Assembly: GCA_001595915.1 (NCBI GenBank)
Contig: LSSG01000075.1
Location: 1 to 53,493, forward strand
Length of the DNA: 53,493 nucleotides
Reading direction: 5' to 3'
DNA from: Thermoplasmatales archaeon SG8-52-3
GTDB taxonomy: Archaea; Thermoplasmatota; E2; DHVEG-1
Shown here: positions 6,202-38,776 of the stretch, in pieces
Layout: each line of letters opens with the position of its first letter
How positions within the stretch are numbered: the stretch's first letter is position 1
Translations under genes and position numbers: made by a program
The notes under the pieces: model-generated
The model's database searches: none
What the model was told of the DNA's origin: nothing
Seen by the model: the letters and a program-made list of their open reading frames with translations, nothing else

Positions 6202-6534
6202 ATGCAGAGTGATAATCTTAAAACTTTTTCAAGAGAAAACATAAGACCTTTGGTTATTAGATCTCTAAGAAGAAGTAATATAAGGAAAAAAATTGCTGAT
6301 TATCTTTTCGAGATTTGTCCTAATGGTAGTTATACTTCAGAGATAGCATACAATATTAAAACGACTCCAACAAATGTAATCGGTGCAATTAGAGGAATGG
6401 GTTCAAGATATAAAGCAGAAGAATCACTAATTTCATTGGAAGTTGTAGAGCAAGTAAAAAATAATTCAAATATTAAACTATATAAAATAACTGATTTTGG
6501 AAAGGAAATTGTTGAATCTCTAAAAATCAAGTAA
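6202..6534 (+). CDS. earA: Archaellum operon transcriptional activator, EarA family
   Basis: IRSLRRSNIRKKI..YL..I.P.GSY.SEIA......PTNVIGAIRGMGSRY....SLI.L..V......KLYKITDFG matches the EarA/COG3373 wHTH pattern; 2 kb upstream of archaellins. Confidence 0.85.
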   Translation: MQSDNLKTFSRENIRPLVIRSLRRSNIRKKIADYLFEICPNGSYTSEIAYNIKTTPTNVIGAIRGMGSRYKAEESLISLEVVEQVKNNSNIKLYKITDFGKEIVESLKIK

Positions 6535-8601: not shown

Positions 8602-9255
8602 ATGGGAAATAAAATACGTAGAATATTAAAGGAAAATAAAGGAAGCATTGGAATAGGCGCGATGATAGTCTTTATCGCAATGGTTCTTGTCGCTGGTATT
8701 GCTGCATCTGTTTTGATTCAAACTAGTACTACGCTTGAATCACGTGCATTAGCAACAGGGCGAGAAACCACTGTAGAGGTTTCAACTGGTGTACATGTTG
8801 TTGGAATATCTGGTAATAATAGTTCAGGTGTAATACAGCATCTAGCTATTATGATTAGAACTAGAGCAGGATCTGAAGAAATTGACCTGGCTCAAACCGT
8901 TATAGAAATATCAAATTCTTCAACGAAAAACTTCTTGACTTACGATGATTCCACTTGTATATTAGCAGATTGGATAAATGGTACAATATTTAATGATTCT
9001 AATTATCCAGCAGATGCAACGCACTTTACAGTAATAGTTTTAGAGGATGCTGATGGTTCGTGTAGTTCACCAAATAGTGCTGTAATCAATTCTGGGGATT
9101 ATGTAATACTTGGTGTAAATACACAACAGTGTTTCAATGGTCTGACTCCAAGACAAGACATCTGGGGATTAGTGATTCCAGAGGACGGTTCACCTGGTGT
9201 GATTCATTTTAGATGTCCATCATCGTTTACGGAGGATGTAATAGAATTACAATAA
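8602..9255 (+). CDS. flaB: Archaellin 1
   Basis: Class III signal [32 protein letters not shown]; RAGSEEIDL; INSGD; PEDGSPG. Confidence 0.95.
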
Positions 9256-9270
9256 GGAGGGTGAAAAAAC

Positions 9271-9936
9271 ATGAGAAATTTATTTAAAACTCTTAAGAGA
9301 AAGGATGTTGGATCTATTGGTATCGGTGCAATGATTGTGTTTATTGCTATGGTTCTTGTTGCTGGTATTGCTGCATCAGTTTTGATTCAAACAAGTACCA
9401 CTCTTGAATCTCAAGCAATGGCCACAGGTCGAGAAACAACTGACGAAGTTGCTGGAGGTATTGCAGTCTTTGATATTGAAGGACATGTCTCAACAGATAT
9501 CGATGCACTAGCAATAACTGTTCGTGCAAGAGCAGGTTCTCCTGATATTGATCTCAATGAGACAATTATTCTACTTACTGATGGAACTTCAAAGACCTTG
9601 TTGATGTATGATTTTGCAACTGCAACCCATTTCAATAGCACTGTTGATACAGGCGATGGAGACGTATTTGGATTTGATTATGGGACTTTGACAAATGAAC
9701 AATTCGGAATAATGGTTCTTGAAGATGCAGATTTATCAGTAAAAAGATATACTCCTGTAATTAACACCGGAGATAAAGTAATGTTATTTGTTAATGGTAT
9801 AGCTTGCTTTGGAGGAACTGGACTTACTGAAAGAAAAGACATTCAAGGATGGATCTATCCTGAACATGGATCTCCTGGAGTAATTGCATTTAGAACACCA
9901 GCATCGTATAGTGATATCGTATACGATCTACAATAA
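9271..9936 (+). CDS. flaB: Archaellin 2
   Basis: [29 protein letters not shown]; RAGSPDIDL; INTGD; PEHGSPG; AGGAGG RBS. Confidence 0.95.
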   Translation: MRNLFKTLKRKDVGSIGIGAMIVFIAMVLVAGIAASVLIQTSTTLESQAMATGRETTDEVAGGIAVFDIEGHVSTDIDALAITVRARAGSPDIDLNETIILLTDGTSKTLLMYDFATATHFNSTVDTGDGDVFGFDYGTLTNEQFGIMVLEDADLSVKRYTPVINTGDKVMLFVNGIACFGGTGLTERKDIQGWIYPEHGSPGVIAFRTPASYSDIVYDLQ

Positions 9937-10079
9937 GGAGGATGATAAAAAATGAGAAATTTATTTAAAACTCTTAAGAGAAAGGATGTTGGATCTATTG
10001 GTATCGGTGCAATGATTGTGTTTATTGCTATGGTTCTTGTTGCCGGTATTGCTGCATCAGTTTTGATTCAAACAAGTAC
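9271..10079 (+). repeat. 128-nt near-identical 5' segments of archaellins 2 and 3 (9271-9398 and 9952-10079)
   Basis: Direct comparison shows a single synonymous mismatch (T9363 vs C10044). Confidence 0.9.
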
Positions 10080-10623
10080 GAGATTAGAGTCACAAGCAAT
10101 GTCAACAGGTCGTGAAACAACTGATGAGGTTTCTAGTGGTATTGCAATTTATGACATAGAAGGATATGCAGATACATCAGTTGATGGAGATCTATCAAAA
10201 TTAGCAATAATGGTAAGACCTAGAGCAGGAACACAAGGTATCGATCTTGAACAGACATATATAGAGTTAGCCGATGAAAATAAAAAGGTTATATTAAACT
10301 ATTCAACCACTTATTACGCTGAACCAGACGGACAAGCAGATATCTTTAGTGCTGCAGTATTTCCTGATACACCTGGTGGAACTCCTGCATCTCAGTATGG
10401 AATACTTGTAATTGAAGATGCAGATAACTCACTAGAACAAGCTACACCCGTAATAAATAGAGGAGACAAGGTATTTCTGTGTATTAATATAACTGGTACA
10501 CATGGTGATATAACTGAGAGAACAAAGGTTTGGGGTTATGTTGTCCCTGAATTGGGATCACCCGGAGTAATAACATTTAGGACTCCTGCCTCATACTCAG
10601 ATGACGTGTTTGATCTACAATAA
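9952..10623 (+). CDS. flaB: Archaellin 3
   Basis: Same N-terminus as archaellin 2; [10 protein letters not shown]; INRGD; PELGSPG. Confidence 0.95.
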
Positions 10624-10643
10624 AATAAATAATAAATATAGTT

Positions 10644-10671
10644 CGTGTGGTCATTTACCACACGTTTTTTT
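10644..10671 (+). terminator. Hairpin plus T-tract after archaellin 3
   Basis: CGTGTGGT-cattt-ACCACACG perfect 8-bp stem, followed by T7 and further T tracts. Confidence 0.7.
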
Positions 10672-10735
10672 AATTTTTTTTTTTAATATCATTTTTAAAA
10701 CCATAAATTTTTATTCTAATATTTGATACTTTTTT

Positions 10736-11449
10736 TTGGATGGGCTCTCTTTTTGGGTGCCTGGGACCCTAATTTACTGGGAGGTGAGCAGAGTTAAAAT
10801 TGCTTTAACTCTAAAGGTTATTCGTTTCGAAAAAAATGCTGCAATAGGAATAGGTTCATTGATAATTTTTATTGCAATGATTCTTGTCGCAGGTATCGCA
10901 GCATCTGTTTTTATTCAAACTATGAATAGCTTGGAACAGCAAGCATTACAATCAGGTCAAGAAGCAATAAAAGACGTATCAAATGGCTTGAGAGTAACGC
11001 AAGTTAGTGGATATAATAATGGTTCAACAATATCTCAAATTGCAATATTTTTAAGGACAACAGCTGGTTCTGATTATATTGATTTAACATATACATATAT
11101 TTCTTTATCAGACACTTCAAAAAATGTAATACTTGATTTAAATACAAGTATTTATAATAGCTCTGTATCTGGCGGTTTATTTGGTACATTGGATGATACT
11201 GCTCTTACTTCAACTACATATGGACTTATGGTAATTCGTGATGTTGATAATTCATGTTTATCTACAAGCCCTATTATTAATAGTGATGATTTAGTAGTTT
11301 TATTAGTAAATACTTCAACATGTTTTTCAGGATTAGATACTAGAACCGAAGTAACAGGAAATATTGTTCCGGAATATGGTATAAGTGGTGTAATTAGTTT
11401 TACAACTCCAAGTAGTTATATAAATACGATAATTGAATTACAAAAATAA
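10736..11449 (+). CDS. flaB: Archaellin 4 (true start probably near 10784-10799)
   Basis: [29 protein letters not shown]; TAGSDYIDL; INSDD; PEYGISG; GGAGGTGA at 10780-10787 inside the called ORF. Confidence 0.9.
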   Translation: MDGLSFWVPGTLIYWEVSRVKIALTLKVIRFEKNAAIGIGSLIIFIAMILVAGIAASVFIQTMNSLEQQALQSGQEAIKDVSNGLRVTQVSGYNNGSTISQIAIFLRTTAGSDYIDLTYTYISLSDTSKNVILDLNTSIYNSSVSGGLFGTLDDTALTSTTYGLMVIRDVDNSCLSTSPIINSDDLVVLLVNTSTCFSGLDTRTEVTGNIVPEYGISGVISFTTPSSYINTIIELQK

Positions 11450-11475: not shown

Positions 11476-12570
11476 TTATCCAAAAAATAGCCTTGCTATT
11501 TCATAAAGCTCCATATCAACAGTTTTTGATTTTGAGGTTGCCTCCTCAAGTGGTACTGGTACAATTTTATCACCCTGTAAAGCTACCATAATACCAAAAT
11601 TTTGATTTTTAATTGACTCAACAGCAGCAACTCCAAATCTTGTTGCAAGAACCCTATCATGAGCTGTTGGTGTTCCACCTCTTTGGACATGACCTAGAAT
11701 TGTGACCCTTGTTTCAACACCCATACGTTTCTCAATTTCTTGGGCTAATGCATGTCCTATTCCACCAAGTCTTACATGGCCAAATTCATCTTTTTCTTTT
11801 GTTTGAATAACAAGCCCTGTTTCCCCAACATTTTGATTTGTAGAATCTGAATTATTTGAATTAGAAGAATTTTCAATTTTTGGATGAGCACCTTCTGCTA
11901 TAGCAATTATGCTAAATTTTTTACCTCTATCATATCTATCTTTTAGATGCTTACAAACTTCATTTATATCAAATGGAACTTCTGGTATCAGTATTTCATC
12001 AGCTCCTCCAGCAATACCTGCCATAGTGGCAATCCATCCAGCATGTCTTCCCATTACCTCAACAACAATTACTCTATGATGAGATTCAGCTGTTGTATGA
12101 AGACGATCTATAGCTTCTGTTACAATTGATACAGCTGTGTCAAAACCAAATGTATAATCTGTACCAGATAAATCATTATCTATTGTTTTAGGAATTCCTA
12201 CAATTGAAATACCCATATGATGTAATTTATTTGCCACACTTAATGTATCATCTCCCCCTATTGCAACGATAGCATCAATACCAAATTTTTTTATATTTTC
12301 ATTTAACTTTTGAACATCTTCCTGTTTATTAAATGGATTCGTTCGAGATGTTCCAATAATTGTTCCACCTTTTGGAAGGATACCTGAAACAGAATAATCA
12401 GTAAGAAGTTCTATTTCTCCGTTAATAAGCCCCTTCCATCCATTTTTTATTCCAATTATATCCCAATTATACTGTATTGATTTTCTCACTACAGCTCTAA
12501 TTACAGCATTTAATCCAGGGCAATCTCCACCACCTGTTAAAACACCTATTTTTTTCATAAAATCAAACAT
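11476..12570 (-). CDS. pfkA: 6-phosphofructokinase, PfkA family, PPi-type signature (start probably 12558)
   Basis: TGGGDCPGLN, GGDDT, PKTIDND, EVMGRHAGW, LGHVQRGG. Confidence 0.92.
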   Translation of the reverse strand: MFDFMKKIGVLTGGGDCPGLNAVIRAVVRKSIQYNWDIIGIKNGWKGLINGEIELLTDYSVSGILPKGGTIIGTSRTNPFNKQEDVQKLNENIKKFGIDAIVAIGGDDTLSVANKLHHMGISIVGIPKTIDNDLSGTDYTFGFDTAVSIVTEAIDRLHTTAESHHRVIVVEVMGRHAGWIATMAGIAGGADEILIPEVPFDINEVCKHLKDRYDRGKKFSIIAIAEGAHPKIENSSNSNNSDSTNQNVGETGLVIQTKEKDEFGHVRLGGIGHALAQEIEKRMGVETRVTILGHVQRGGTPTAHDRVLATRFGVAAVESIKNQNFGIMVALQGDKIVPVPLEEATSKSKTVDMELYEIARLFFG

Positions 12571-12626: not shown

Positions 12627-14414
12627 TCAAGTTGAAAGCATTCCTCCAAATCCTACATCAACAATAAAACTTGTTATTGCTACAATCCAAACAAATGGAA
12701 CAAAATAAAGCAAAGTAACATAAATGTGACTACCTCTCAAGACTCGCAATGTTAAACCCATCATAAAGCAATGAATAACTAGAACAATGAAAATAATTAT
12801 GAAATTTTGATTATAAAGCGCTGGATCAATGAAATTTAATAATGCAGGAATATTAATTCTCTCGACATTTTCAAAGGGATTGCCGGTTTCCATCATTATA
12901 GTATTCAAATGTCTGCCAATAATAAGTGATACATAAATTGCAAAGGCAATACCAAATGTAATACCTGCAAATAATGCAATTGATGTATTTACAATGGTGA
13001 GTTTTTTTACTCGAAGATCTCTAATTTTTCTCATATTTTCCGATATCATTCGAGAAACAATACGCGGATTAGCAGCAGCATATGTAGCCTCGCGAAACAT
13101 TTCACTTGACCTTTGAACATAATTACTACCTGTATCAACACCAAACCAATCCCATGCAGCATTATCATCAATTCTTGTTCTTAATCTTCTGTATAAATTT
13201 CTAATATGTCTAGTTAAAACTCCATAATCTTTTTCGCTTAGATAGTAAACAGATTCATTTATTTTTCCTCCTCTCATTGCTGAAATTGAACCAAGAGCAG
13301 GTAAAAAACTGAGGAAGTTTTTTTCCTTTCTAGAGATTTCTGTTTCTGCTGTAAAAACCTTAATTCCAGTAATTAACAAAGGAGTTATAGATAATGCAAT
13401 AATTATTTCAAATGAAAGAATATCAAAAAAAGGAAGTGAAAGAAAATATTTTCCAAAAAATAATACCGCTCCTATTAATATTACTAAAACTACTGAGGTT
13501 CTAAATATACTAGTTATTTTTTCTTCTAGTTCTCCTTTTTCACCTGTTACATGCCATATTTCATCCTGTGGAATCATTGCCTTTAAAAGATACATCAATA
13601 AACCTTCAGAAACAATAAGTAAGAAAGATGATAGATAAATGAACATGTTCATGTCTTCAGTACCAATTATTATAGGTAGAACAATACCTAAGGACATAAC
13701 AAAAATTATGGCAATTAACATTGCAACATAAACTTCATTTAAAATAATGACATTTTCATTGCTAGACTCATACATTGTTTTATACTCTTGAATTACTGCT
13801 TCCTGTTCGGTTTCGATAAATTCTCTATGTTCAACACCACTGTCAAGGCTCTGGGAAAATCTGTCTAAGAAATCCTTAAGTATTTTACTTGGTGTTCTTT
13901 CTGATATAAAGCGAAATGTTTTAGATAACGGCATTCGCCATTGAGTTGATAATACACCAATTTTTTTTAGTTCAAAACCCAATGCACCATATGCCTTTTT
14001 CCCGCCTAGAATATTTATTATATCTCTTAGTGATAAATCAGAAATTGCCAAAACCCTCAAATGTGTTATAAAAAAATGCATCTTTGCATTAATATCATTT
14101 TCTTTATTCTTCCATGTAATATAAGGGTAAAAAACACCAAGAATTATTGGAACTATTCCACCTACAATAAAAGATATGGGATTAAGATTCAAAGGAAATG
14201 GAACAATTATCATTAAAATAAAAGGCATTATGAAAACAATTATTCCCATTACTATTAATGGGAGAAGAATTGTAGTATAGAACTTCTTTGGATTTTCAAG
14301 ACCACGATAAGCAATTTTTAATTCTTTTATAAAGTCCTTTTTATTTTCAATGTCTGAATCTTTTTTTTCCTTTTTCCTTTTTTTTGTTTTCTTTTTATCT
14401 GTCATTTTTTTCAC
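12627..14414 (-). CDS. flaJ: Archaellum membrane platform protein ArlJ
   Basis: Multi-TM; TPSKILKDFLDRFSQSLDSG T2SSF-like motif; overlaps arlI stop. Confidence 0.9.
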   Translation of the reverse strand: MKKMTDKKKTKKRKKEKKDSDIENKKDFIKELKIAYRGLENPKKFYTTILLPLIVMGIIVFIMPFILMIIVPFPLNLNPISFIVGGIVPIILGVFYPYITWKNKENDINAKMHFFITHLRVLAISDLSLRDIINILGGKKAYGALGFELKKIGVLSTQWRMPLSKTFRFISERTPSKILKDFLDRFSQSLDSGVEHREFIETEQEAVIQEYKTMYESSNENVIILNEVYVAMLIAIIFVMSLGIVLPIIIGTEDMNMFIYLSSFLLIVSEGLLMYLLKAMIPQDEIWHVTGEKGELEEKITSIFRTSVVLVILIGAVLFFGKYFLSLPFFDILSFEIIIALSITPLLITGIKVFTAETEISRKEKNFLSFLPALGSISAMRGGKINESVYYLSEKDYGVLTRHIRNLYRRLRTRIDDNAAWDWFGVDTGSNYVQRSSEMFREATYAAANPRIVSRMISENMRKIRDLRVKKLTIVNTSIALFAGITFGIAFAIYVSLIIGRHLNTIMMETGNPFENVERINIPALLNFIDPALYNQNFIIIFIVLVIHCFMMGLTLRVLRGSHIYVTLLYFVPFVWIVAITSFIVDVGFGGMLST

Positions 14415-16069
14415 TTAAGATTTATTGGAAGTCCTTTATCGCCCTCTCTATAATAACTCCATATAAATTGAGTTACCTCATAATAATCCATAATATCTTC
14501 TTCTACCATTTTATCAAGAATCATTTTTCTTTTGTTATACTCAACATAGATTTCAGTCGGATCTGCATATCCTGCATTTTTTGCAATTTTCTCTTCAAGA
14601 ACAAAGCTATTTCTATTGGCTCTAAAACGGTGAATATCTTCAACAGGATCCCATTCGAATGCATTTCTTGACATTATCCCATCGACTTCTCTATTGTAAC
14701 CCTCAATTTCATCAATTGAGGTACATCTCCTTATTAATTTACCATTACGATCAATTGCTAGTTGAATTATTACAAAATCCAGGTTATCCATGAACGTTTT
14801 TGGTACATTTATAGGATCACCTGTAAATCTCTGAATAACCTTTGTTACTGTTCCGGCATGAAATGTAGTCATACAGGGATGACCCGTTTGCATAGCCTGA
14901 AATACAATGCTACCTTCTGCACCCCTTACCTCTCCTGGAATGATATAATCTGGTCTTGATCTTAATGCTGCCTTTAAAAGATCAAATAAATCAACTCTTC
15001 CCTCCTCAGGTCCTGTTGTCTTAGTAAGAAGTTGTTGCCATACTGTATGAGGAACCTGCATTTCAGGGGTTGATTCAGCGGTATATATCTTTTTTTCTGG
15101 TGGAATAAAAGGTATTATTGCATTCATTGTCGTTGTTTTTCCACATGCAGTTCCACCACAGATAAAAAAACTTCGTCCATACTGCAGACAAAGCCAAAGA
15201 TATGCCCCAATATTAGAACTAAGAGTTTTCCATTTTATAAGCTGAGTGATACTTATAGGAGATTCTGTAAACCTTCTTATTGTCATACTTGGTCCCTTAA
15301 TACTAATTGCATTGCTATAGATGATGTTACCTCTACTTCCATCTGGTAAAACACCATCAACAATAGGTTGTCCTTCACTTACGGGAGTGCCCATTTTTTC
15401 ACTTAATTTTCTTGCAAAAACAGGACCATCATCTTTACTGATTTCAACATTTGTTTTAATCATTCCAAATACTTTATGTATAAGATGGATTTTATGTCCA
15501 GTAATCATATGAATATCTTCTAAATAAGGATCTCTCATAAAACATTCAAGAGGTCCCCCACCAACAATATTTTTTATTAAAAAATATTCAATATTACTTT
15601 TCTGTAAAGAAGTTGCTTTTATCTTATCACGTTTAGTAGATTTGTTAAATTTGCTTTTTTTTGAAGTAACTGCTTTTATTGCTTTATCATCAACTTGTAT
15701 AATTTCATCTATCATTTCTTTAAGTACATCTTTTAGTTCTTCATCTGAGATAACACTCTTTTTTTTAGGAGCAAATTTAATAATTAATTTTTGAAGTTCA
15801 TCATGTTTTATTTGTTCATTATTATCAAGGGTAGGTTCAATCGTATGATATTCAAGTTCATCCATATCTCTTGTTTTAAAAACATGATAAAAAATTGAAC
15901 CCTTTCCAGGATAAATCAAATTAGGATATTTTTCTTCTCTAACTTCATATGGTAAAGTTGAGTAAAATACAGGTTCTTTCATTTTTCTCTTAATATTATC
16001 TATATATTTTTTTAAATGTGGATTTGTTTGAAGCATTTGTTCTTTTGCTTTATCATTCATATCTGTCAT
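14411..16069 (-). CDS. flaI: Archaellum motor ATPase ArlI, copy 2
   Basis: RDPYLEDI, LPDGSR, Walker A GGTACGKTT, ALRSRPDYIIPGEVRG, His box QTGHPCMTTFHA. Confidence 0.9.
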   Translation of the reverse strand: MTDMNDKAKEQMLQTNPHLKKYIDNIKRKMKEPVFYSTLPYEVREEKYPNLIYPGKGSIFYHVFKTRDMDELEYHTIEPTLDNNEQIKHDELQKLIIKFAPKKKSVISDEELKDVLKEMIDEIIQVDDKAIKAVTSKKSKFNKSTKRDKIKATSLQKSNIEYFLIKNIVGGGPLECFMRDPYLEDIHMITGHKIHLIHKVFGMIKTNVEISKDDGPVFARKLSEKMGTPVSEGQPIVDGVLPDGSRGNIIYSNAISIKGPSMTIRRFTESPISITQLIKWKTLSSNIGAYLWLCLQYGRSFFICGGTACGKTTTMNAIIPFIPPEKKIYTAESTPEMQVPHTVWQQLLTKTTGPEEGRVDLFDLLKAALRSRPDYIIPGEVRGAEGSIVFQAMQTGHPCMTTFHAGTVTKVIQRFTGDPINVPKTFMDNLDFVIIQLAIDRNGKLIRRCTSIDEIEGYNREVDGIMSRNAFEWDPVEDIHRFRANRNSFVLEEKIAKNAGYADPTEIYVEYNKRKMILDKMVEEDIMDYYEVTQFIWSYYREGDKGLPINLK

Positions 16070-16136
16070 TTTATCTTTTTTTTTTATTACATATATTATT
16101 GTGAGTGCACCCTTAAATTAAATTTATTTATGTATT

Positions 16137-17777
16137 TTAAATTGTTATTGGTAATGATTGGACCCCTTCTCTATAGAATGTCCAAATGAATTGAACGACT
16201 TCATAATAATCAAATATTTTTTCTTCTACCATCCTCTCCAATATATGCTTCCTAAGATCATACTCATCATATATTTGCATAGGATCTTCATATCCTGCCA
16301 TAGGAGCAATACGTTGTTCTAAAATGTAGCTGTTTCTATTTGCTTTGAACATATGAGCATCATCCACAGCATTCCATTCAAATGCCTTTCTTGACATAAT
16401 GCCATCTACTTCTTTGTTATATCCTTCTATTTCATCAACTGATAGAACTCGTCTTATTCTTTTTCCTTTACGTTCAACAGCCATCTGTATCAAAACAACG
16501 TCTAAATTGTCCATGAATGTTTTTGGAATATTTATTGGATGGCCAGTAAATCGCTGAATTACTTTTGTTACAGAACCTGCATGAAATGTTGTCACAACTG
16601 GATGACCTGTCTGCATAGCTTGAAATACAACTCGACCTTCAGCCCCTCTAGTTTCTCCTGGAATAATATAGTCAGGTCGGGACCTTAGACCTGCTCTTAA
16701 AAGATCTCCTTCATCAATATGTCCTTCTTTTGGACCTGTTGATCTGGTAAGTAATTGTTGCCATACAGCATGAGGAACTTTTACTTCAGGTGTATTTTCA
16801 ACAGAATAAATTTTTTTATCAGGTGGAATAAAAGGAAACATTGCATTAGACGTTGTGGTTTTTCCAGATGCGGTTTCACCACAAACAAATATACTGCGTC
16901 CATATTGTAGACAAAGCCAAAGATAAGCTCCAACTCCTGAATCAAATGTACCCCAATTTATTAATTGTGTAATGCTAATTGGCGTTTCACTAAATTTTCT
17001 AACTGTCATACTTGGTCCTTTAAGACTGACATCTTTACTATGAATTATATTAACCCTACTTCCATCAGGGAGAGTACCATCTGCAATTGGTTGTCCTTCA
17101 CTAACTGGACTTCCGATTTTTTCTGCAAATTCTTGTGAAAATCTATTTGCCCAAGATTCATCAATGAAAATGTTTGTCTTAACCATATCAAAGACTTTAT
17201 GGATGAGATGAACATTTTGACCTGTGATAATATGAATATCTTCGATATATGGATCTCTCATAAAAGGTTCAAGAGGTCCACCGCCAACAATATCTTTTAT
17301 TATATGATATTCTATTGTCATCTTCTCAAATGTTGTAACTTTAATTTTTCCACCTTTAGATTTACTTAATTTTCCACCAGACTTTTCATCTATTGTAGTA
17401 ATTTTCTGAAGATATTCTCTTATAGCTTTTCTCAAATCATCTTGAGATTTAATATCTGTTTTAAGATGAGCTTTCTCATATATCAATTCAATAACTTGTT
17501 CAAGTTTTTCATTTGTTTTATCATCTAAAATTGGTGTTATTGCAAAATATTCTTTATCTTCCATATCCTTTGTTTTAAAAATATGAATAAAAACTACACC
17601 TTTTGTAGCATATATTATGTTAGGATATTCTTCCTCCTTAACATCCCTTGGAACTTTGCTATAAAAGGTAGGTTTTCCCATCTTTTTTTCAATTTCTGAA
17701 ACATACTTCTTAAGATGGGGATAATCCCTTAGCAATTTATCCACTTCAGGTTTTTCTATTTCTGTCATTTCTCCCAC
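16137..17777 (-). CDS. flaI: Archaellum motor ATPase ArlI, copy 1
   Basis: N-terminal PHL..Y, YPNIIY; Walker A GETASGKTT; LRSRPDYIIPGETRG; QTGHPVVTTFHA. Confidence 0.92.
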   Translation of the reverse strand: MGEMTEIEKPEVDKLLRDYPHLKKYVSEIEKKMGKPTFYSKVPRDVKEEEYPNIIYATKGVVFIHIFKTKDMEDKEYFAITPILDDKTNEKLEQVIELIYEKAHLKTDIKSQDDLRKAIREYLQKITTIDEKSGGKLSKSKGGKIKVTTFEKMTIEYHIIKDIVGGGPLEPFMRDPYIEDIHIITGQNVHLIHKVFDMVKTNIFIDESWANRFSQEFAEKIGSPVSEGQPIADGTLPDGSRVNIIHSKDVSLKGPSMTVRKFSETPISITQLINWGTFDSGVGAYLWLCLQYGRSIFVCGETASGKTTTSNAMFPFIPPDKKIYSVENTPEVKVPHAVWQQLLTRSTGPKEGHIDEGDLLRAGLRSRPDYIIPGETRGAEGRVVFQAMQTGHPVVTTFHAGSVTKVIQRFTGHPINIPKTFMDNLDVVLIQMAVERKGKRIRRVLSVDEIEGYNKEVDGIMSRKAFEWNAVDDAHMFKANRNSYILEQRIAPMAGYEDPMQIYDEYDLRKHILERMVEEKIFDYYEVVQFIWTFYREGVQSLPITI

Positions 17778-17780
17778 TTT

Positions 17781-18491
17781 TTAGAAAGCAACTCCACTTG
17801 TTTCAATAGTTAATCCAACACCAGGTCTGACAGAAAATGTGGTCAATGGTTCATATTTATGTCTAGCTCCATTAAACTTTTCAAGATAAATATTATGGAC
17901 AATTCCAACTCCTGGCATTGATTCGCGAGTAATTTTATAATGAATATCACAAATCATCTGAAATGCGCTATGAATTCTACTTGACCATTCATTAGGGTTT
18001 CCAGTAACCCATATCATTTTACCAGAGCCTTTTAATCTATTAAAAAAATTAGTTAAATCTACTAAATTATCTTCATTTAAACTTTCATTCAGAAGTGTTG
18101 ATAGAGAGTCAATGAAGATTATATCAGGATCAAAAAGTTTTTTACAGGTAGTTAATCCTTCCATAAATGTACTTTTTGGTTTTGTTTCAGCTAACATTAC
18201 TTCAGTTGATATAAAAAATAATTTCCCTCTGATTAGATAATTTCTCATATCATAACCAACTGAAGCAACTTGTCTTAAAAAACTCTTAATTGTATATTGT
18301 GTTGAAACATATGAACAAGTTGAACCATTCTTGAGTAAGCTATAACAAAATCTCTGACAAAAAATACTTTTTCCAGTACCCTCCTTTCCCTCTATAAAAA
18401 TTAATGTTCCATCAGGAATTTCTTTACCAAATCTTTGTGCAAAGCCATCCTTTTCTCCTTTTCTTTCTAAAATTATTGATTTACTTGTCAT
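17781..18491 (-). CDS. flaH: Archaellum KaiC-like ATP-binding protein ArlH
   Basis: Walker A GKEGTGKS, QRFCYSLL, IIFIDSLS, C-terminal FSVRPGVGLTIE. Confidence 0.92.
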   Translation of the reverse strand: MTSKSIILERKGEKDGFAQRFGKEIPDGTLIFIEGKEGTGKSIFCQRFCYSLLKNGSTCSYVSTQYTIKSFLRQVASVGYDMRNYLIRGKLFFISTEVMLAETKPKSTFMEGLTTCKKLFDPDIIFIDSLSTLLNESLNEDNLVDLTNFFNRLKGSGKMIWVTGNPNEWSSRIHSAFQMICDIHYKITRESMPGVGIVHNIYLEKFNGARHKYEPLTTFSVRPGVGLTIETSGVAF

Positions 18492-18512: not shown

Positions 18513-18956
18513 CTAAATTGTAAATATAAATTCATCAACTATATCTTGAGGTCCCACCAATCTTAAAGAATGATCACCTGATGATATTTCACTATTATCT
18601 ATAAACATCGTGGCAACTTCATCCGGTTGTATGGAACTAGCTGAAAAATTAAAATTTGCTGTAATAACAATTTCTCCATCTATAAATAAATTAAATGTTT
18701 CATTTGTTGTTGCAAGTTTTCTACTACCAATATTTTTGACATAGAATATATAGAAACTTCCGGATATTGGAATATTATCTGGATCATTTATTATTATAAA
18801 GTTGGATTCCAGATTTTCCTCAATTATTTTTCCTCTTTCTGAAAAACTTGTCATTACACCATCAATTACTGTTATAAAAACTCCTGAAACTGCACTAGCA
18901 ATAATTACAGAGGCTATGAAAAATACTACATGTGTTCCAGTTAAACTAAATCCCAT
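18513..18956 (-). CDS. flaG: Archaellum stator protein ArlG
   Basis: N-terminal TM THVVFFIASVIIASAVSG; IINDP; YVKNIGS; LFIDG; position before arlH. Confidence 0.88.
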   Translation of the reverse strand: MGFSLTGTHVVFFIASVIIASAVSGVFITVIDGVMTSFSERGKIIEENLESNFIIINDPDNIPISGSFYIFYVKNIGSRKLATTNETFNLFIDGEIVITANFNFSASSIQPDEVATMFIDNSEISSGDHSLRLVGPQDIVDEFIFTI

Positions 18957-18975: not shown

Positions 18976-19404
18976 TTAAGTTAATGTAAATTCATAATAA
19001 TCTGATATTCCATTATTTGTTACAACCTTTACTTTCATAAACCCTGATCCTGAGAAATTATATACATTAAAATAAACATTATTTTCTGGATGAATATATG
19101 ATTTTGAACAAGAGAAATTGTTGATAGTCCCATTGATTAATATATTAAATAATGATGTTTTTAAAGTAATACTACCAATATTATCAACAGTTATGTTTAT
19201 ATCATAATTTGATCCATTAACTGTATTTATCACATTTGTAATGTTTATATCAGTTTGAACCTGATCGATAATTCTATCTCTCATTTCATCAAATGCATCA
19301 TCTACATTTGTAATAGTTGGTACTGTTGTACTCATAATTATTTCTAAACACATCAATACTGATACACCAATAATTGCAGCAGCACCTACTAATGAGAATC
19401 CCAT
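18976..19404 (-). CDS. flaF: Archaellum stator protein ArlF
   Basis: MGFS...TM start; NITVDNIGSITL; ILING; KVVTNNGI. Confidence 0.88.
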   Translation of the reverse strand: MGFSLVGAAAIIGVSVLMCLEIIMSTTVPTITNVDDAFDEMRDRIIDQVQTDINITNVINTVNGSNYDINITVDNIGSITLKTSLFNILINGTINNFSCSKSYIHPENNVYFNVYNFSGSGFMKVKVVTNNGISDYYEFTLT

Positions 19405-19505: not shown

Positions 19506-20294
19506 TTAGCAATTATCGATTTTTTTTGTTATCCTTGCAAGTTCACTTTCTATTCTATCTATAAAATGTTTGTCAAGTTGCAATCCTTTTAGTTTTTGTA
19601 TATATACAAGAGATTGGATATGATCTTTTGACGGTAAATCTGTAATATGTTTTTTTGTAGTCTCATCTTTCTTTGTTTGATCAGTAATACCCTGAGAATA
19701 ATCAATCAGTCCCATCTTTGCATCTTGTGTAATCCAACCAATATCTACATAATAGTCAAGAATATTTGACAGATTAGGTCGTCCACATTTATCGATTAAA
19801 TATTGTAACCATTTCATTAAAACAATAACACTTTCTGGATTATTGGGAATTTCAGTAAGTGGTTCTACATTCCATTTAGGAGCATCTCCAATAACTCCCT
19901 CTGGGACCTTAATATCATCTGTTGTTACAAACCTTGGTTTGCTTGCTGTTCCCTTTTCTAAATAAATTATTTTTTCTTTAAGCTCCTCTATTGTTTCGAT
20001 AATTTTTTGCATATCTCCATTTTTTTGAATTGTAACTGATTTTTCTTTACTTTCGGATTTTTCTTGAGGTCTTGCTGTATTTGCATATGTTTTCATAATT
20101 TCCTGTATTTTGCCAATAAGTTGCTGAAATTGTTTTTGATTAATTTTTATATTTTTTTCTTTAAGTTTATTTTCTAATTTTTCTGCTAGTTTTTTGGGTA
20201 TTACATTTTTAGATACCAAGGTAGATAGTTCAGTACTTAGATCAAATTCTTCTGTAGTTTTGCTCTCTTCCTCACCTTCTACCATAATTAACAC
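19506..20294 (-). CDS. flaD: Archaellum accessory protein ArlD/E (start probably 20285)
   Basis: LTEIP...VLMKWLQYLIDKCG...ILDYYVDIGWIT...DHIQSLVYIQKLKG, the FlaD/E domain pattern. Confidence 0.88.
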   Translation of the reverse strand: MLIMVEGEEESKTTEEFDLSTELSTLVSKNVIPKKLAEKLENKLKEKNIKINQKQFQQLIGKIQEIMKTYANTARPQEKSESKEKSVTIQKNGDMQKIIETIEELKEKIIYLEKGTASKPRFVTTDDIKVPEGVIGDAPKWNVEPLTEIPNNPESVIVLMKWLQYLIDKCGRPNLSNILDYYVDIGWITQDAKMGLIDYSQGITDQTKKDETTKKHITDLPSKDHIQSLVYIQKLKGLQLDKHFIDRIESELARITKKIDNC

Positions 20295-20305
20295 CTAATA
20301 GTTTT

Positions 20306-21034
20306 TCAATCCTTTAAATTTTCTATAAATTCATTGATTAAATTATCAATTACCAAATCTATGTTTATATCATGAAATGTTTTTTCAATTATAACATCTA
20401 GATCATTATTTGAAAATTCTTCTGTTATATTTACAGATGTATTTGAATTTTTTTCAGAAGGTTTGGCTACTGTAGCAGTATTTTGTACGGCCTTAATTTC
20501 TGCAAAATCTGCACCGGCATTTTCAGCAAATGATTCTATTTCTCCTACTCTTTCTTTTAATTCATCGATTTCCTTTGTGAAATTTTCAAGGGCATCTATT
20601 CTTTTTTTTGTAACTTTTGAAAGTCCTACAAATGGATTCATTTGTTCTGATACTATTTCATATAGACTAACTAGGTCATCAAGATCTTTTGAAACTGACT
20701 CTAACTTTTTATGAATTGAAGTTATTTCTTCAGAATTTTTTTTAATTTGAAAATCAAAATCTTTTATGCTTTGTAATATTGCACGTTTTTGTTCAAGTGA
20801 ATCTCTAGTAGTCGGCTCTTCATCATCAGATAATTTTTCTTCATTTTTCGGTTCTTTCTCTTTTTCTGAGTTATTCTCTTGATCAACTTTTATTACTTTT
20901 CTAAGGTTCTCTATATTCTGTTTTGATTCTGAAGAATCATCTGGTTTTTCTTCAACTTCTTGAGAAGGCTCTTCTTTAGGACTTGATTCTTCATCTGAGG
21001 TTTTATCCACAGAGTCATCTTCACCTTTTCCCAT
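20306..21034 (-). CDS. flaC: Archaellum accessory protein ArlC
   Basis: Coiled coil ending DLVSLYEIVSEQMNPFVG (FlaC signature); acidic N-terminus. Confidence 0.85.
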   Translation of the reverse strand: MGKGEDDSVDKTSDEESSPKEEPSQEVEEKPDDSSESKQNIENLRKVIKVDQENNSEKEKEPKNEEKLSDDEEPTTRDSLEQKRAILQSIKDFDFQIKKNSEEITSIHKKLESVSKDLDDLVSLYEIVSEQMNPFVGLSKVTKKRIDALENFTKEIDELKERVGEIESFAENAGADFAEIKAVQNTATVAKPSEKNSNTSVNITEEFSNNDLDVIIEKTFHDINIDLVIDNLINEFIENLKD

Positions 21035-21244: not shown

Positions 21245-22582
21245 ATGATTTTTAGCATAAGGGTAGTAGTTTCTAAGGAGAAAAAAGGAAAAACAAAAAA
21301 AGAAATTAAAAAAGCAATTATAAAAAGTTCCAGTAAATCAACTACAAATATTGTATTAAGTATAGGAAAAGATAGGCACATTACAAAATATAATATAGAA
21401 TGTGAACGTATATTTGGTTATAATAAGAAAGAAGCAATAAATCAACCAATATTTAATTTTCTAATTCCTACTAAATTTAAAAATGAATGGAAAGAAAAGT
21501 TCGACTCTTTAGAAAATAATAAGAAAATTGATGATTTTAATCTTCCATTATTAGATAAACAAGGACAAGAAGTTCTGATTTCTTGGAGTGTTTTTCCTGT
21601 TAAAAATGTTCATGGTACTCTTATTGATATTAATCTTGTTGGTAATCTAATTTCTTCATTATATGAAGAAAAAGAGCCCTTGATTGAATTTCCAAAAATA
21701 GAAACTAAGGAAAAACCAGATAAAACCTTAATTAAAGAAAACACAATTGAAAAAAAATCTGAGAATTACAATGAACTTAAAAAAATGATTAAAATTCTAA
21801 AAAGAAAGAATTCAGAACTTGATAAAAAAAATAAAGATTTAGAAAAAAATCTCGATTTTTTTAAAAATCGTGTTGAAATTCTTAAGAAAAAGAAGAGTAA
21901 GAAAAAATCTAAAAAAGATGCTCATGAAGATTATCAATCATTCTCTGATTTGGTTGAAAATAAATTAGATAATCAAGATTATGAAAATATAATGAATGAA
22001 CTTGATGACCGTGAAAAACTATTAAAAAATCTTGAAAATGACCTCATGAAGGATAAATCTAATATTAACGAACAAGCAAATGAATTTAAAAAATGGCGGA
22101 AGAAACTTGAAAATTTAGAAATAGATATCAATAATAGAGAAAAGGAACTTCTTACCAAAGAGAGATTATTGACAGATAAAATTGTTACTTCAGAAGATAT
22201 AACATCTGATTTTAATAAGGGGGGAAAAGTTGTAAAATACCACGATCTTCTTGATAAAATTCCTGATTCGGCAGTTGTTATTCACAGAGGTATTTTAAAA
22301 CAGGTAAATGATTCATTTGCAAATTTGATTGGATATAAAATTGATGAAATTTTAAATAAAAGTTTGTTTGATTTTATTATAGCTGAAGAACTTTCAGATG
22401 TTAAGGATTTTTATATCAACAGGTTAATGGGAGTTGATGTTTCTAATTTTGAGACTACTTTGCTTACTAAAAATAATGATGAAATTTTGGTAGAGGTAAA
22501 TACTAAACCAACTGATTTCAATGGTAAAAAAGCAGAGATTGCTATAATAAAAACAATTAAAACTAAAAAAGAAGAAAAATAA
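21245..22582 (+). CDS. PAS - coiled coil - PAS protein with no kinase or output domain
   Basis: N-terminal YNIECERIFGYNKKEAINQPIFNFLIP; C-terminal LLDKIPD..VNDSFANLIGYKIDEILNKSLFDFI; heptad-rich middle. Confidence 0.8.
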   Translation: MIFSIRVVVSKEKKGKTKKEIKKAIIKSSSKSTTNIVLSIGKDRHITKYNIECERIFGYNKKEAINQPIFNFLIPTKFKNEWKEKFDSLENNKKIDDFNLPLLDKQGQEVLISWSVFPVKNVHGTLIDINLVGNLISSLYEEKEPLIEFPKIETKEKPDKTLIKENTIEKKSENYNELKKMIKILKRKNSELDKKNKDLEKNLDFFKNRVEILKKKKSKKKSKKDAHEDYQSFSDLVENKLDNQDYENIMNELDDREKLLKNLENDLMKDKSNINEQANEFKKWRKKLENLEIDINNREKELLTKERLLTDKIVTSEDITSDFNKGGKVVKYHDLLDKIPDSAVVIHRGILKQVNDSFANLIGYKIDEILNKSLFDFIIAEELSDVKDFYINRLMGVDVSNFETTLLTKNNDEILVEVNTKPTDFNGKKAEIAIIKTIKTKKEEK

Positions 22583-22609: not shown

Positions 22610-23500
22610 TTAATCAAGTTTTACAATTCTCATTGTAAAAACTGATGGAGCTGTAACATCATATTCTGCTTTGATACCTATTTCTGGTGCAAGTGTTCCT
22701 GATATCTCTTTTCTTGGTTCAAGCCCACCTGTATCAAGCACTGCGGAAAGATTGATAATTATTAATGCTCTATCTCCACTATTCATACCATGTGTTGTTG
22801 TGATAGATCCATCTGGATCATGTACTGCAATTACACCGAAATATAATTGTGAAGTATTACCTACTATTGTATATGGTGACCCTGATGTAATTGGAGTATG
22901 AAATACACTTTTATTATCTAGATTGACATTTTGTACAAGTGATTCATTTAATTTTAATATCGATAGGTTATTGTGTAGAACTGATAATGTACATAGGCTT
23001 AGATCGATATCTTTTGATCCTGCTCTTGGTCTAACTTGTATTGCTAGATATTCAATTAATGATTTTTGAGCATTTGTATAACCTGTTACTTGTTCAATTG
23101 CAATTCCTGCTGATACTTCTCTTATTGTTGCTGTACCAACTGTTTTTGCTCTTGACTGTAAGGTTTCACTAGTATTTATCAAAACACTTGCAGCTACAGC
23201 AGCAATTAAGACCATGGCAATAAACACAATTAGAGTACCAATTCCAACCATGGCCTTGTTATCTTCAGTAATTAATTTTCTTTCATTATGTTTTTTATGT
23301 TTCTGTGCAGGTTTTATTGCTATAATTGTACTTATTCTAAGACATCCTAAACCTTGTTCTGAATCAATTAAAATAAAACCATCTTTGTAATCTACATCTT
23401 CAAGAGTACCAATAACGACACTTGCTCTATCGTCACCAGGCTCTTTTGTTACAATTTTACAGTATCTTCCAACCAGCCTTTCCATATATTTCTTTTCCAT
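22610..23500 (-). CDS. flaB: Archaellin 5 with an 83-aa N-terminal extension (Sm/LSm-like domain in the leader)
   Basis: Canonical [32 protein letters not shown] at aa80-111; [11 protein letters not shown]; MNSGD; PEIG; AGGTGGTGA RBS before ATG 23500. Confidence 0.9.
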
Positions 23501-23768: not shown

Positions 23769-24395
23769 ATGGGTAAATTATTAACAACAGGCTTGACAAG
23801 TTCCATACTTATAGTATCTTTATTATTGATAGGAATAACAGTTGCATCAGTATTAACAAGTGAGACAACAGATACTATTTCAGAGCAAGATATTGAACAA
23901 ATGACAGAAGAAACTATAGATGAGATATCAACATATATATTGATAAAGGATCAAATAGGAAAATATAGCAATATTAATGGCGAACAAAGAATTGAAAAAA
24001 TTGCATTATGGATTACTCCTCTTGTAACACAAGAAATTGACATATCAAAACTTACAATAAAACTAAACAATGGTGATAATGTAATATTTCTAAAATATTC
24101 AAATAACTCATTAACTCTAGGATCATACTCATTATTTGAACATAAAATTTGGGAAAATATTAATGGAAGTAATTTTGGATTTATCTCAATTATTGACATG
24201 GATGAATCATTGGTAAATTTTGATATATTAAATGATTGTTCGGATAATGCATATATAGTTTTAAAATTACCAGAATATATGACTTTAAGCAAACATGAAA
24301 AAATGATTGTTACCTTATTTCCTTCAACAGGTATTACTCGAACAATAGAATTGAAAGCACCATTACCTATAAAATCTATTGTCTCGTTTGATTAA
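23769..24395 (+). CDS. Degenerate archaellin-like protein lacking the canonical class III cleavage motif
   Basis: N-terminal TM ending VASVL; ETIDEIST; IEKIALWITP..QEIDIS; FGFISIIDMDES; LND.SD; LFPSTG....KAP, collinear with the archaellins in this window. Confidence 0.7.
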   Translation: MGKLLTTGLTSSILIVSLLLIGITVASVLTSETTDTISEQDIEQMTEETIDEISTYILIKDQIGKYSNINGEQRIEKIALWITPLVTQEIDISKLTIKLNNGDNVIFLKYSNNSLTLGSYSLFEHKIWENINGSNFGFISIIDMDESLVNFDILNDCSDNAYIVLKLPEYMTLSKHEKMIVTLFPSTGITRTIELKAPLPIKSIVSFD

Positions 24396-36424: not shown

Positions 36425-37006
36425 CTATATTTCGCTTGTTTTGCCTGATGCAAGATTTATTAGATGTTTTTCTGCATCTTCAGGTCCTTTGGCAAAAAGA
36501 ATATCACCTGAATCAATTTTTGTATTTTTTGTAGGACCATAAAGCCATTTATCACCATGTCTCATTGCAATAACTACCATACCGGTTTCACTAGCAAGCT
36601 TTAATTCACCCAGAGTTTTATTTGATAAAATAGAATTTTCATTAACCTGTACCCTGCTAAATACCACATCAGATTCACGAATACTCATCTTTAAAATTGG
36701 GTGTAATTCTACATCCCTTAATTCAACATCTGCAATTTCCTGAGCAGCATCTGCTATTTGTTCACCTGCTTCAGCAAGTCTTAAAACAGTTAATGCATCA
36801 TTTATACTCAATTTTTTATTTTCAACATTTTCAAGGGTCTGTCTTTGTAGATTTTTATATAGACTATCAATAAAGTCTTCTAAATCATAGACTTCTTTGG
36901 CAATTGTTTTGTTATCATATAAAAGAGATGAATATGCAAGATCAACCATAAGTTCAGATTTATCCTTTATTTCAAGAACTATATCTTCAACAGTCTTTTT
37001 ATTCAT
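36425..37006 (-). CDS. PhoU-like plus TrkA-C domain protein
   Basis: EIKDKSELMVDLAYSSLL, EQIADAA, SETGMVVIAMR. Confidence 0.85.
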   Translation of the reverse strand: MNKKTVEDIVLEIKDKSELMVDLAYSSLLYDNKTIAKEVYDLEDFIDSLYKNLQRQTLENVENKKLSINDALTVLRLAEAGEQIADAAQEIADVELRDVELHPILKMSIRESDVVFSRVQVNENSILSNKTLGELKLASETGMVVIAMRHGDKWLYGPTKNTKIDSGDILFAKGPEDAEKHLINLASGKTSEI

Positions 37007-37665
37007 TCTAACGCCCTCAATTTACCTTGTAAGAATTTACTTAATTCATCATAACCTTCATTAGTCCCTCTGACTATCAACCAATCTTCAGCCTTAATTG
37101 TGGTATCAGATTGTGGATTGTATATCCAGCAATCCTCTCTTCTAATAGCAATAATTCTCATACCAGTTTCAGATTCAACTCTGAGATTTTCAATTTTTTT
37201 ATCACAAGCCTCTGATGCTGATGCAACTTTAATTCTGAATAGTTCTTCATCGGCTTGTTTTAATATCTTTGGTAGAATAGGAACAGATTTATCCTTTGAA
37301 AGAAGGTTAACAATGTCTCCTGCGGCATTGGAAATACTTTCTGCAGCTTCAGCAACCTGTAAAATTCCAGCGAGTTCCTCAGCATCTTCCTTAGTTCTTG
37401 CAGCCATCATTGCCATCATTCTTATATCGTAATTCAATTTATCCATTCGTACATCAAGATATCTTACCTCTTCACCAATTTCTTCGTTGTTAAAAAGAAT
37501 AGCAGAATATGCTAGATCAATTATTAATTCTGAGATATCTTTCATTTCTGTTAATAATTCTTTAACAGAGGTGGGTTCATATTCAAGTTCGCTAAATTCT
37601 TCCTTTTTCCATTTTGGTGTTCTTTGTAACCTTCCAAATATTTTTCTTCTTTTTTGGTCTGTCAT
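37003..37665 (-). CDS. PhoU-like plus TrkA-C domain protein (paralogue)
   Basis: EMKDISELIIDLAYSAIL, ESISNAAGDI, SETGMRIIAIRR. Confidence 0.85.
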   Translation of the reverse strand: MTDQKRRKIFGRLQRTPKWKKEEFSELEYEPTSVKELLTEMKDISELIIDLAYSAILFNNEEIGEEVRYLDVRMDKLNYDIRMMAMMAARTKEDAEELAGILQVAEAAESISNAAGDIVNLLSKDKSVPILPKILKQADEELFRIKVASASEACDKKIENLRVESETGMRIIAIRREDCWIYNPQSDTTIKAEDWLIVRGTNEGYDELSKFLQGKLRALE

Positions 37666-38225
37666 AATCCAACTCCAATAAGTCCAATTACAGAAAATAA
37701 AAAGATTATACCCATTACATCTCCAACGGTTGTCACAACTGGTGCAACCATATCATCAGGGTCCAATCCTCTTTTAAATGATATAAATGCAGTTAAAACG
37801 CTAATAAATGAAACCATACATATCAGAAGGAACCCTGTAAAAACAATTATAGCAACAAACTCTATCAAGGTTATTTCCTCAATTAAATTCCCAAATAACG
37901 CTAAGAAATAAATAACTATCGCAAGGATAAGATAAGTGATAAGACCAATAAGAATCGAAATTAATAAATTATCATGCATTTCCTTATTTTTTAAACTCAA
38001 AGTTATATATCCAACATGCAAACCAGAAGCAAGACGAGCTCCTAAAACACTTCCAATATTACCACTTATACTATTTATCACTGGAATTGATATAAGAAAA
38101 ACGGGAAAAAGAAGTAAAGATTCTTGTTTACCTTGAAGAATTTGACCAGCAAATATCTCAATTAAAATTGTAACTGATAAGAGTGGTAAACTATGTTTTA
38201 CAATCTTTTTCCAACTATATATCAT
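37662..38225 (-). CDS. MgtE-family membrane domain protein
   Basis: GNIGSVLGARLAS; GLDPDDMVAPVVTTVGD. Confidence 0.85.
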   Translation of the reverse strand: MIYSWKKIVKHSLPLLSVTILIEIFAGQILQGKQESLLLFPVFLISIPVINSISGNIGSVLGARLASGLHVGYITLSLKNKEMHDNLLISILIGLITYLILAIVIYFLALFGNLIEEITLIEFVAIIVFTGFLLICMVSFISVLTAFISFKRGLDPDDMVAPVVTTVGDVMGIIFLFSVIGLIGVGL

Positions 38226-38776
38226 AAAACTACCTCCACAAGAAAAGCGCTACCAAAAAGACAAACCATTGTAACGATATCTCCAAAAGTGGCAAGAGCT
38301 GGTCCAGTTATATTATCTGGGTCATATCCGCGTTTAAAAACAAGATAAATTATTACAATTGTCATCAAATTTAGAATAACTGCTGAAATCACTCCAGCAA
38401 TAAGTACAATTGATATTAATTTGATAGGATCAGGATATACTCCTAAAACAAAAGAGGTTAAATAGGCAAGCAGTCCAATGATTATTGAAACAAATAAGCT
38501 AAGAATTAAAGAACCCATTATATTTTGTTTAAGCTCCTCATTCCATAAATTTTCGGAATTGATAATTCCAAGATGATAAGCAGAACCCAAACGTGAACCA
38601 AAAGCTGTACTAATATTTCCTCTGAGAGCAATAATTGCTGGAACAACAACAATAAGACCAGGAATCTCCTTAAGAAGATCTATCATTACACCAAGAGTAC
38701 TACCTGCAACTATAGCACCTAATCCACAAAAAATGATTAGGGGGAGGCTCTGCTTCACCATTTCCTTTGCATACAT
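38222..38776 (-). CDS. MgtE-family membrane domain protein
   Basis: RGNISTAFGSRL; GYDPDNITGPALATFGD. Confidence 0.85.
   Translation of the reverse strand: MYAKEMVKQSLPLIIFCGLGAIVAGSTLGVMIDLLKEIPGLIVVVPAIIALRGNISTAFGSRLGSAYHLGIINSENLWNEELKQNIMGSLILSLFVSIIIGLLAYLTSFVLGVYPDPIKLISIVLIAGVISAVILNLMTIVIIYLVFKRGYDPDNITGPALATFGDIVTMVCLFGSAFLVEVVL

Follow-up and report, generated by a model that had tools for sequence, protein, structure and literature searches.

The field has yet to explain how one hexamer of the motor ATPase ArlI (also named FlaI) can both assemble and rotate the archaellum filament. In what is available of two broad censuses, FlaI is given as single-copy in all archaellated archaea (Makarova et al., 2016) and the ATPase as staying single-copy per archaeal subsystem (a 2026 census). 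The first-pass annotation of the DNA studied here started from the premise that known archaella use a single ArlI, and as far as the accessible parts of reviews and censuses go, they say the same. Here we analyze a contig of 53,493 nucleotides (LSSG01000075.1, assembly GCA_001595915.1; the whole stretch is referred to as the window) from the uncultured sediment organism Thermoplasmatales archaeon SG8-52-3, in which the archaellum motor operon carries two adjacent arlI genes, an upstream copy (UP) and a downstream copy (DN). Both belong to the same family as canonical ArlI, represented by FlaI of S. acidocaldarius (PDB 4II7/4IHQ) and part of the arlH-arlI-arlJ core that every described archaellum has, and share its domain order, its catalytic motifs and its position between arlH and arlJ; the Walker A motif of UP, GETASGKTT, is identical to the canonical one. 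However, canonical ArlI is single, whereas here tandem paralogs are found order-wide, with DN having a derived P-loop and a longer, basic N-terminal loop. The pair thereby contradicts the general single-copy statements of both censuses. What is new is the ArlI copy number and its conservation, the family itself being known.

Two ArlI proteins in one motor operon

The minus strand of the window encodes a complete euryarchaeal-type archaellum motor operon with the gene order arlC-arlD/E-arlF-arlG-arlH-arlI-arlI-arlJ (Table 1). By every sequence test applied, both ATPases are members of the ArlI/FlaI family. The equivalog model NF058587 of NCBIfam ('archaellum flagellar ATPase motor FlaI'), with a curated cut-off of 550 bits, gave 686.2 bits for UP and 682.2 for DN, and the Pfam T2SSE model (PF00437, cut-off 24.9) gave 99.0 and 99.5 bits, respectively. 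In phmmer searches the FlaI of S. acidocaldarius (4II7) was matched by UP at E 6.9e-110 and by DN at E 2.7e-102, the alignments spanning residues 32-538 of UP and 116-537 of DN. AlphaFold2 models of the two proteins (mean predicted local distance difference test scores of 81 and 83) had an identical order of helices and strands, N-terminal helices included; the Lys-rich loop of DN (residues 135-146) was modeled with low confidence. Alignment and element order together thus place the two-domain FlaI-like architecture, with its N-terminal domain, in both copies. Both carry Walker A, the Walker B glutamate (GE-x-RG), DGSR-x-N in the Asp-box region and QTGH in the His-box region, and both lie between arlH and arlJ, a layout also seen in relatives. 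The first-pass annotation had reported two full-length arlI genes (546 and 552 aa) at this position with Walker A motifs reading GETASGKTT and GGTACGKTT; open reading frames and family models bear out the genes, and both motifs were recovered.

Two other identities were tried and rejected. A retraction ATPase of the PilT/PilU type is contradicted by scores of 43.0 and 42.1 bits against TIGR01420, whose cut-off is 319.1, and by the placement of both copies inside the ArlI clade of the order. A PilB/PilT-like identity likewise finds no support, given that the copies are each other's closest relatives within ArlI, share the full ArlI architecture and reach only 42-43 bits where the PilT model requires 319. 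A ring of catalytic and non-catalytic paralogs of the A3B3 type was rejected as well, since both proteins keep the Lys/Thr of Walker A and the Glu of Walker B. Judged from these residues, neither copy is a dead subunit.

UP and DN share 60% protein identity over 551 aligned residues and 68% identity at the DNA level, where the longest exact common run is 17 nt. Because of this low DNA identity and short exact run, they are neither a recent nor an assembly duplicate. The claim that the pair is no assembly duplicate had already been made from the letters alone; it gains further weight from the occurrence of the pair in two closed genomes of one contig each (G001 and G011). Recent gene conversion within the window was also rejected, as a 17-nt run is close to the chance expectation at 68% identity and the best 60-nt window reaches 88%.

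The order of the window, within the Thermoplasmatota, is one that we take to be the same as Marine Benthic Group D, or Thermoprofundales. The synonymy behind this naming is that given in the accessible part of PMC9585477. All 118 genomes of the order were searched with the DN protein (E <= 1e-100), and ArlI was found in 90 of them, including 42 of the 43 genomes with a completeness of at least 90%; the 28 genomes with no match are either incomplete or archaellum-less, the two cases being pooled. Exactly two matches were present in 77 of the 90 ArlI-bearing genomes, adjoining each other wherever coordinates were listed. Four genomes had three matches, which represent split or fragmented genes (G006, G014, G027 and G031), and nine had one. 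Seven of these nine single matches lie at a contig end or on a fragment (G002, G023, G034, G105, G115, G069 and G090), leaving two genuine single-ArlI genomes, G079 and the closed genome G075. The copy-number survey therefore does away with the possibility, raised in the first-pass annotation, that the duplication is restricted to one assembly. In the accessible part of the genome paper on Thermoprofundales, FlaI comes up solely among genes predicted for plasmids, and no account of a tandem pair emerged from a literature search on two or paralogous ArlI/FlaI, supplementary tables being outside its scope.

Across 42 loci with full-length UP and DN genes, UP preceded DN in all 42, with a spacer of 2-126 nt (median 56) between them and the arlJ start at a median of 7 nt past the DN stop. 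In the window, the upstream arlI follows the end of arlH after a gap of 3 nt, and the arlJ start overlaps the DN stop or is no more than about 8 nt away.

Ancestry, selection and divergence of the two copies

Phylogenetic trees of ArlI were built with FastTree (137 full-length rows) and with IQ-TREE under LG+C20 (50 chosen rows, with SH-aLRT support), and their topologies agreed. All ArlI of the order formed one clade with a support of 100 on a stem of 0.49-0.56 changes per site. Within it, the UP clade was monophyletic (99 in FastTree, SH-aLRT 99 in IQ-TREE), as was the DN clade (99 and SH-aLRT 97), and the two were sisters (97), with the single ArlI of G075 and G079 branching just outside. 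The copies are thus two ancient sister lineages and not private to the window. Since each copy type forms its own clade, these trees place one tandem duplication at the root of the order or close to it, earlier than the divergence of its two archaellated families.

The single-ArlI clusters of G075 and G079 (L105, G075:C1:1184000-1198000; L106, G079:C72:12000-25000) are complete and syntenic with the others, and each of the two genomes shares its genus with pair-bearing genomes. Relative to the window, however, their ArlH and ArlJ are 57% and 56% identical, versus 74% and 69% for a pair-bearing genome of the same genus, and every component of the clusters is more diverged than in the congeners. 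Being syntenic yet more diverged throughout, they suggest a second, single-ATPase cluster type that may have been exchanged within the order. A fusion of UP and DN as the source of this ArlI was rejected: it is equidistant from both in every 50-residue window, and the whole cluster is more diverged.

Wider sampling of the phylum (301 genomes, 161 with ArlI) recovered one match in 108 of the 117 ArlI-bearing genomes outside the class of the window and two in the remaining 9; in the four of these nine for which coordinates were listed, the matches were on different contigs. Within the same class, a second tandem pair was found in other families, where four genomes (G294, G337, G359 and G370; L099-L103) have arlH-arlI-arlI-arlJ with overlapping arlI genes; G038, also of another family of the class, has one arlI. 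In both FastTree and IQ-TREE the first and second copies of the four genomes formed two clades outside the clade of the order. A single old duplication common to the pairs of both lineages was rejected by the approximately unbiased (AU) test, in which the best tree recovered with the downstream copies of both lineages together was 176 log-likelihood units worse (p 4.6e-05), the constrained group having been defined after the tree was seen. A tree that joins first and second copies of the four genomes was not rejected (p 0.56) and scored 3.1 log-likelihood units above the unconstrained search. Given these two test results, two independent tandem duplications would fit the sequences, and an older pair with early and complete homogenisation may be an alternative history. 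Outside the archaea, a single bacterial genome was reached, a member of the Chloroflexota (via L072) with a partial, lone arlI at a contig end.

Selection was assessed by the ratio of non-synonymous to synonymous change (dN/dS, Nei-Gojobori) at the 42 loci where UP and DN are both full length. Of 149 candidate pairs the 60 closest were computed, and 23 of these had a usable dS in both genes. Median dN/dS was 0.029 for UP and 0.044 for DN (maxima 0.090 and 0.134), and non-synonymous change in DN was about 1.5 times that in UP. Both copies are under strong purifying selection and neither is relaxed. The first-pass annotation had reasoned that relaxed selection or silence of one copy, or a duplication confined to this assembly, would undo its reading. 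These objections mostly fail: the duplication is order-wide and both ratios are low (0.029 and 0.044), which supports the view that both copies matter.

Among alignment columns conserved at 95% or more in both clades (188), the residue is the same in 184 and different in 4, and the UP and DN clades both retain Walker A, the glutamate of Walker B, DGSR-x-N and QTGH. GETASGKTT, the Walker A of UP and also of single-copy ArlI, was present in 61 of 62 UP-clade rows, and three DN rows binned as having no Walker A actually read GGTACGKTA. Three DN genes have the UP-type motif GETASGKTT (L044, L071 and L048). Exact DNA runs shared by UP and DN reach 55, 41 and 38 nt in the relatives L044, L049 and L071, lengths that would fit occasional short gene conversion.

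The clades differ by fixed residues (90% or more within each clade) at fourteen positions. As far as single-copy outgroups settle the polarity, the derived states in DN are Glu-to-Gly and Ser-to-Cys in the P-loop and Val-to-Cys beside the His-box, and in UP it is Tyr-to-His after DGSR-V-N; DN also has Gly in DGSR-G-N. In the window proteins, the P-loop residues concerned include Gly306 and Cys309 of DN and Ser304 of UP. Located as they are in the P-loop, in DGSR-x-N and beside the His-box, these changes cluster around the nucleotide site. The P-loop cysteine was found in 46 of 50 DN rows of the order and in all five second copies of the other lineage, whose P-loop reads GEAACGK. At the same position, 80 of 81 UP, first-copy, single-type and outgroup rows have Ser, one (of the UP clade) has Ala and none has Cys; one additional UP-clade row, binned with the outgroups, is also Ser. 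Because this apparent second origin shows the same P-loop change, it suggests selection rather than accident.

Measured against the variation inside each clade, the copies differ most in two stretches of the N-terminal domain. The ratio of between-clade to within-clade identity falls to 0.65 (residues 101-150) and 0.70 (residues 201-250), versus 0.82-0.88 elsewhere. In the ring-forming C-terminal domain, UP and DN are about 75% identical. The loop of the N-terminal domain is longer in DN (27 versus 21.5 residues) and more basic (8.6 versus 5.3 Lys plus Arg), and the N2 region is more acidic in UP (net charge −6.1 versus −2.5 in DN). According to two reviews, the N-terminal domain lies at the face toward the membrane and ArlJ and is needed for rotation, and removing the very N-terminus abolishes rotation while assembly is kept (PMC12024892, PMC8978795).

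Proposed roles of the two ATPases in the motor

The pair is genuine, old and under selection, and makes the archaellum motor a two-ATPase variant whose mechanism we infer from the features above. As candidate mechanisms, the first-pass annotation had put forward a heterohexameric motor or a division of labor, be it assembly versus rotation, opposite directions, or extension versus retraction. With moderate confidence, we favor a reading in which the two ArlI proteins would be made together and act as working, non-redundant subunits of one motor, most likely as a mixed hexamer. Such a ring, for example with alternating UP and DN subunits, would stand on one ArlJ platform with one ArlH ring. Its nucleotide sites would be slightly unlike: DN would contribute a P-loop containing Gly and Cys and a DGSR-x-N motif with Gly at x, and UP a His for the ancestral Tyr. 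Its N-terminal surfaces would be unlike too, with a longer and more basic loop in DN and a more acidic N2 region in UP. An asymmetry would thereby be built into a ring that elsewhere is a homohexamer and must alternate between building the filament and rotating it. When paralogs of a homo-oligomer are expressed together and have similar interfaces, they usually still co-assemble, and the mixed hexamer is favored because of this tendency, the roughly 75% identity of the C-terminal domains and the back-to-back genes, which are presumably made together. The overlapping genes of the second tandem pair in the same class are also consistent with a preference for a heteromer. As a tentative extension, an obligate two-subunit ring (for example an alternating A3B3) may have arisen independently at least twice in one class, with the subunit at the DN position gaining the P-loop Ser-to-Cys change each time; the subunits might then split assembly and rotation, or take ATP-binding and power-stroke positions facing ArlJ.

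Several observations weigh against the proposed joint motor. The closed genome G075 and the genome G079 have an otherwise complete, syntenic cluster with one ArlI, so that one ArlI can serve such a motor. A copy is interrupted or split in four genomes, namely UP in G006 (G006:C5:5468-7094), DN in G042 and G093 (G042:C28:11819-13213; G093:C161:8950-10593), and one in G090 (G090:C29:13191-14462); these stops and splits are either assembly (sequencing) error or decay. The 67-nt, AT-rich spacer between the arlI genes holds a TATA-like element, ATAATATAT, about 26 nt ahead of the DN start codon ATG, which would permit separate regulation of DN; the same spacer lacks any stretch of at least five T on its sense strand. 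Two metatranscriptome runs on sediment, both of a single study and each matching 0.05 of the sampled words, yielded RNA-library contigs with exact 151-nt matches on UP and arlJ, where carry-over of DNA is possible. On DN such contigs match over 34 nt only, with 3 differences, and are uninformative on DN expression.

The main rival, which we consider less likely, is a division of labor between two homohexamers, one for assembly and the other for rotation (or for one rotation direction), that would alternate on the single ArlJ as PilB and PilT do on PilC in type IVa pili. The sole ArlI of other archaella must switch from assembly to rotation, as described in the accessible part of PMC12024892, and a duplication could split these tasks. 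It would also agree with the retention of the catalytic motifs in both copies and with the strongest divergence (0.65 at residues 101-150, 0.70 at 201-250) falling in the very domain implicated in membrane and ArlJ contact and in rotation. However, at 60% identity and with one architecture, UP and DN resemble each other far more than PilB and PilT do. Their own scores on the PilT model are 42-43 bits where the cut-off is 319, and no interface change that would insulate two rings from each other is evident among the conserved columns, of which 4 in 188 differ. Furthermore, equal amounts of the two proteins are predicted from the tight operon linkage, an arrangement better suited to one complex than to an exchange cycle.

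An unlikely third reading takes UP and DN as condition-specific isoforms, interchangeable ATPases tuned to redox state (through the DN P-loop cysteine), energy charge or temperature, either of which would run the motor alone. A cysteine in the P-loop can make an ATPase redox-sensitive, and the derived changes do lie at the nucleotide site (Glu-to-Gly, Ser-to-Cys, DGSR-Gly-N); the TATA-like element could be DN's own promoter, and relatives exist with single-ArlI clusters. Against this, gene order and linkage are invariant (42 of 42 loci), the pair is kept in 77 of 90 genomes and dN/dS is very low, a pattern that a joint requirement explains better than a back-up. It is very improbable that one copy has left the motor, by decay or by recruitment elsewhere, be it to a different filament or to regulation without catalysis, for although there are interrupted copies in four genomes, a DN evolving about 1.5 times faster at non-synonymous sites and extra archaellin-family genes nearby, both copies have dN/dS of 0.03-0.04, keep all catalytic motifs and pass the FlaI equivalog model, and separate pilus-type ATPases are encoded elsewhere in the genome (contigs C36 and C65).

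Two diverged and catalytically intact ArlI per operon across a whole order amount to a natural experiment on the archaellum motor. If the mixed hexamer or a division of labor holds, so that the copies have separate tasks or fixed positions in the ring, assembly and rotation would become separable both genetically and structurally.

Gene map and comparison with other filament machines

The source genome (1.9 Mb in 84 contigs, rated 79% complete) contains four secretion-type ATPase genes, the two arlI and the two pilus-type genes referred to above, and the window has a G+C content of about 30%. Features of the motor operon and its surroundings are collected in Table 1.

Table 1. Motor operon and neighboring features, in window coordinates.
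Feature	Coordinates	Strand	Evidence or remark
EarA-like gene	6202-6534	+	PF07381, E 3.1e-29
Four archaellin genes	8602-11449	+	PF01917 in all four; convergent with motor operon
Phosphofructokinase-family gene	11476-12570	-	PF00365, E 3e-118; between arlJ and archaellin genes
arlJ, platform gene, single copy	12627-14414	-	Best match NF004704 ArlJ/FlaJ, 465.7 bits, below cut-off 550
arlI, downstream copy (DN), 552 aa	14411-16069	-	T2SSE, NF058587; Lys-rich longer loop, residues 135-146
Walker A of DN, GGTACGKTT	15131-15157	-	
Spacer between arlI genes, 67 nt, AT-rich	16070-16136	-	Read directly
arlI, upstream copy (UP), 546 aa	16137-17777	-	T2SSE, NF058587
Walker A of UP, GETASGKTT	16854-16880	-	
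arlH (KaiC-like), single copy	17781-18491	-	Best match NF052589 ArlH, 183 bits, below cut-off 215
arlG	18513-18956	-	Best match NF052591 ArlG, below cut-off; stator gene
arlF	18976-19404	-	Best match NF052590 ArlF, below cut-off; stator gene
arlD/E	19506-20294	-	PF04659 Arch_fla_DE; switch/cytoplasmic-ring gene
arlC	20306-21034	-	PF05377 FlaC_arch; switch/cytoplasmic-ring gene
PAS-domain gene	21245-22582		
Archaellin-family gene	22610-23500	-	Pfam match from residue 84; about 80 residues precede archaellin domain
Archaellin-family gene	23769-24395	+	Beyond arlC
Two MgtE-domain genes, then two PhoU/TrkA_C genes	36425-38776	-	Each pair in tandem

The PAS-domain gene and the two extra archaellin-family genes flanking it lie past arlC, and a homolog of the archaellin-family gene on the minus strand adjoins arlC also in the single-ArlI clusters, so that its position is conserved. 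The EarA-like gene, at a distance of 2 kb from the archaellin genes, may encode an activator of archaellum genes; the namesake of its family is an activator of the archaellum operon. The phosphofructokinase-family gene is intact in the closest relative (L016), is broken up into three open reading frames in the closed genome of L051, and has no counterpart at the corresponding position of L061. The tandem MgtE-domain and PhoU/TrkA_C genes are further paired paralogs in the window.

Among known machines, bacterial type IVa pili likewise combine several paralogous PilT/VirB11-like ATPases (PilB extends the pilus, PilT and PilU retract it) with one platform protein. PilB and PilT, however, are old and separate families with different N-terminal architectures and often unlinked genes, whereas UP and DN are sister lineages of ArlI that share one architecture and whose genes always adjoin. 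Among bacterial proteins of solved structure, the closest to both copies is CpaF/TadA of Tad pili (E about 1e-37). CpaF-type P-loops begin with GG, as does that of DN. The accessible parts of PMC11300603 and PMC12019362 describe CpaF/TadA as one bifunctional ATPase, like canonical ArlI, and it is from this one-ATPase solution that the organism of the window departs. Lineage-specific duplications of type IV filament ATPases are also on record in the accessible parts of Makarova et al. (2016), for the two archaellum loci of Methanosarcina, and of PMC6491452, for the PilB/PilC paralog pairs of Haloferax. In those cases the ATPase is doubled together with its platform at separate loci, whereas here the ATPase alone is doubled, within one operon that retains one arlJ and one arlH.

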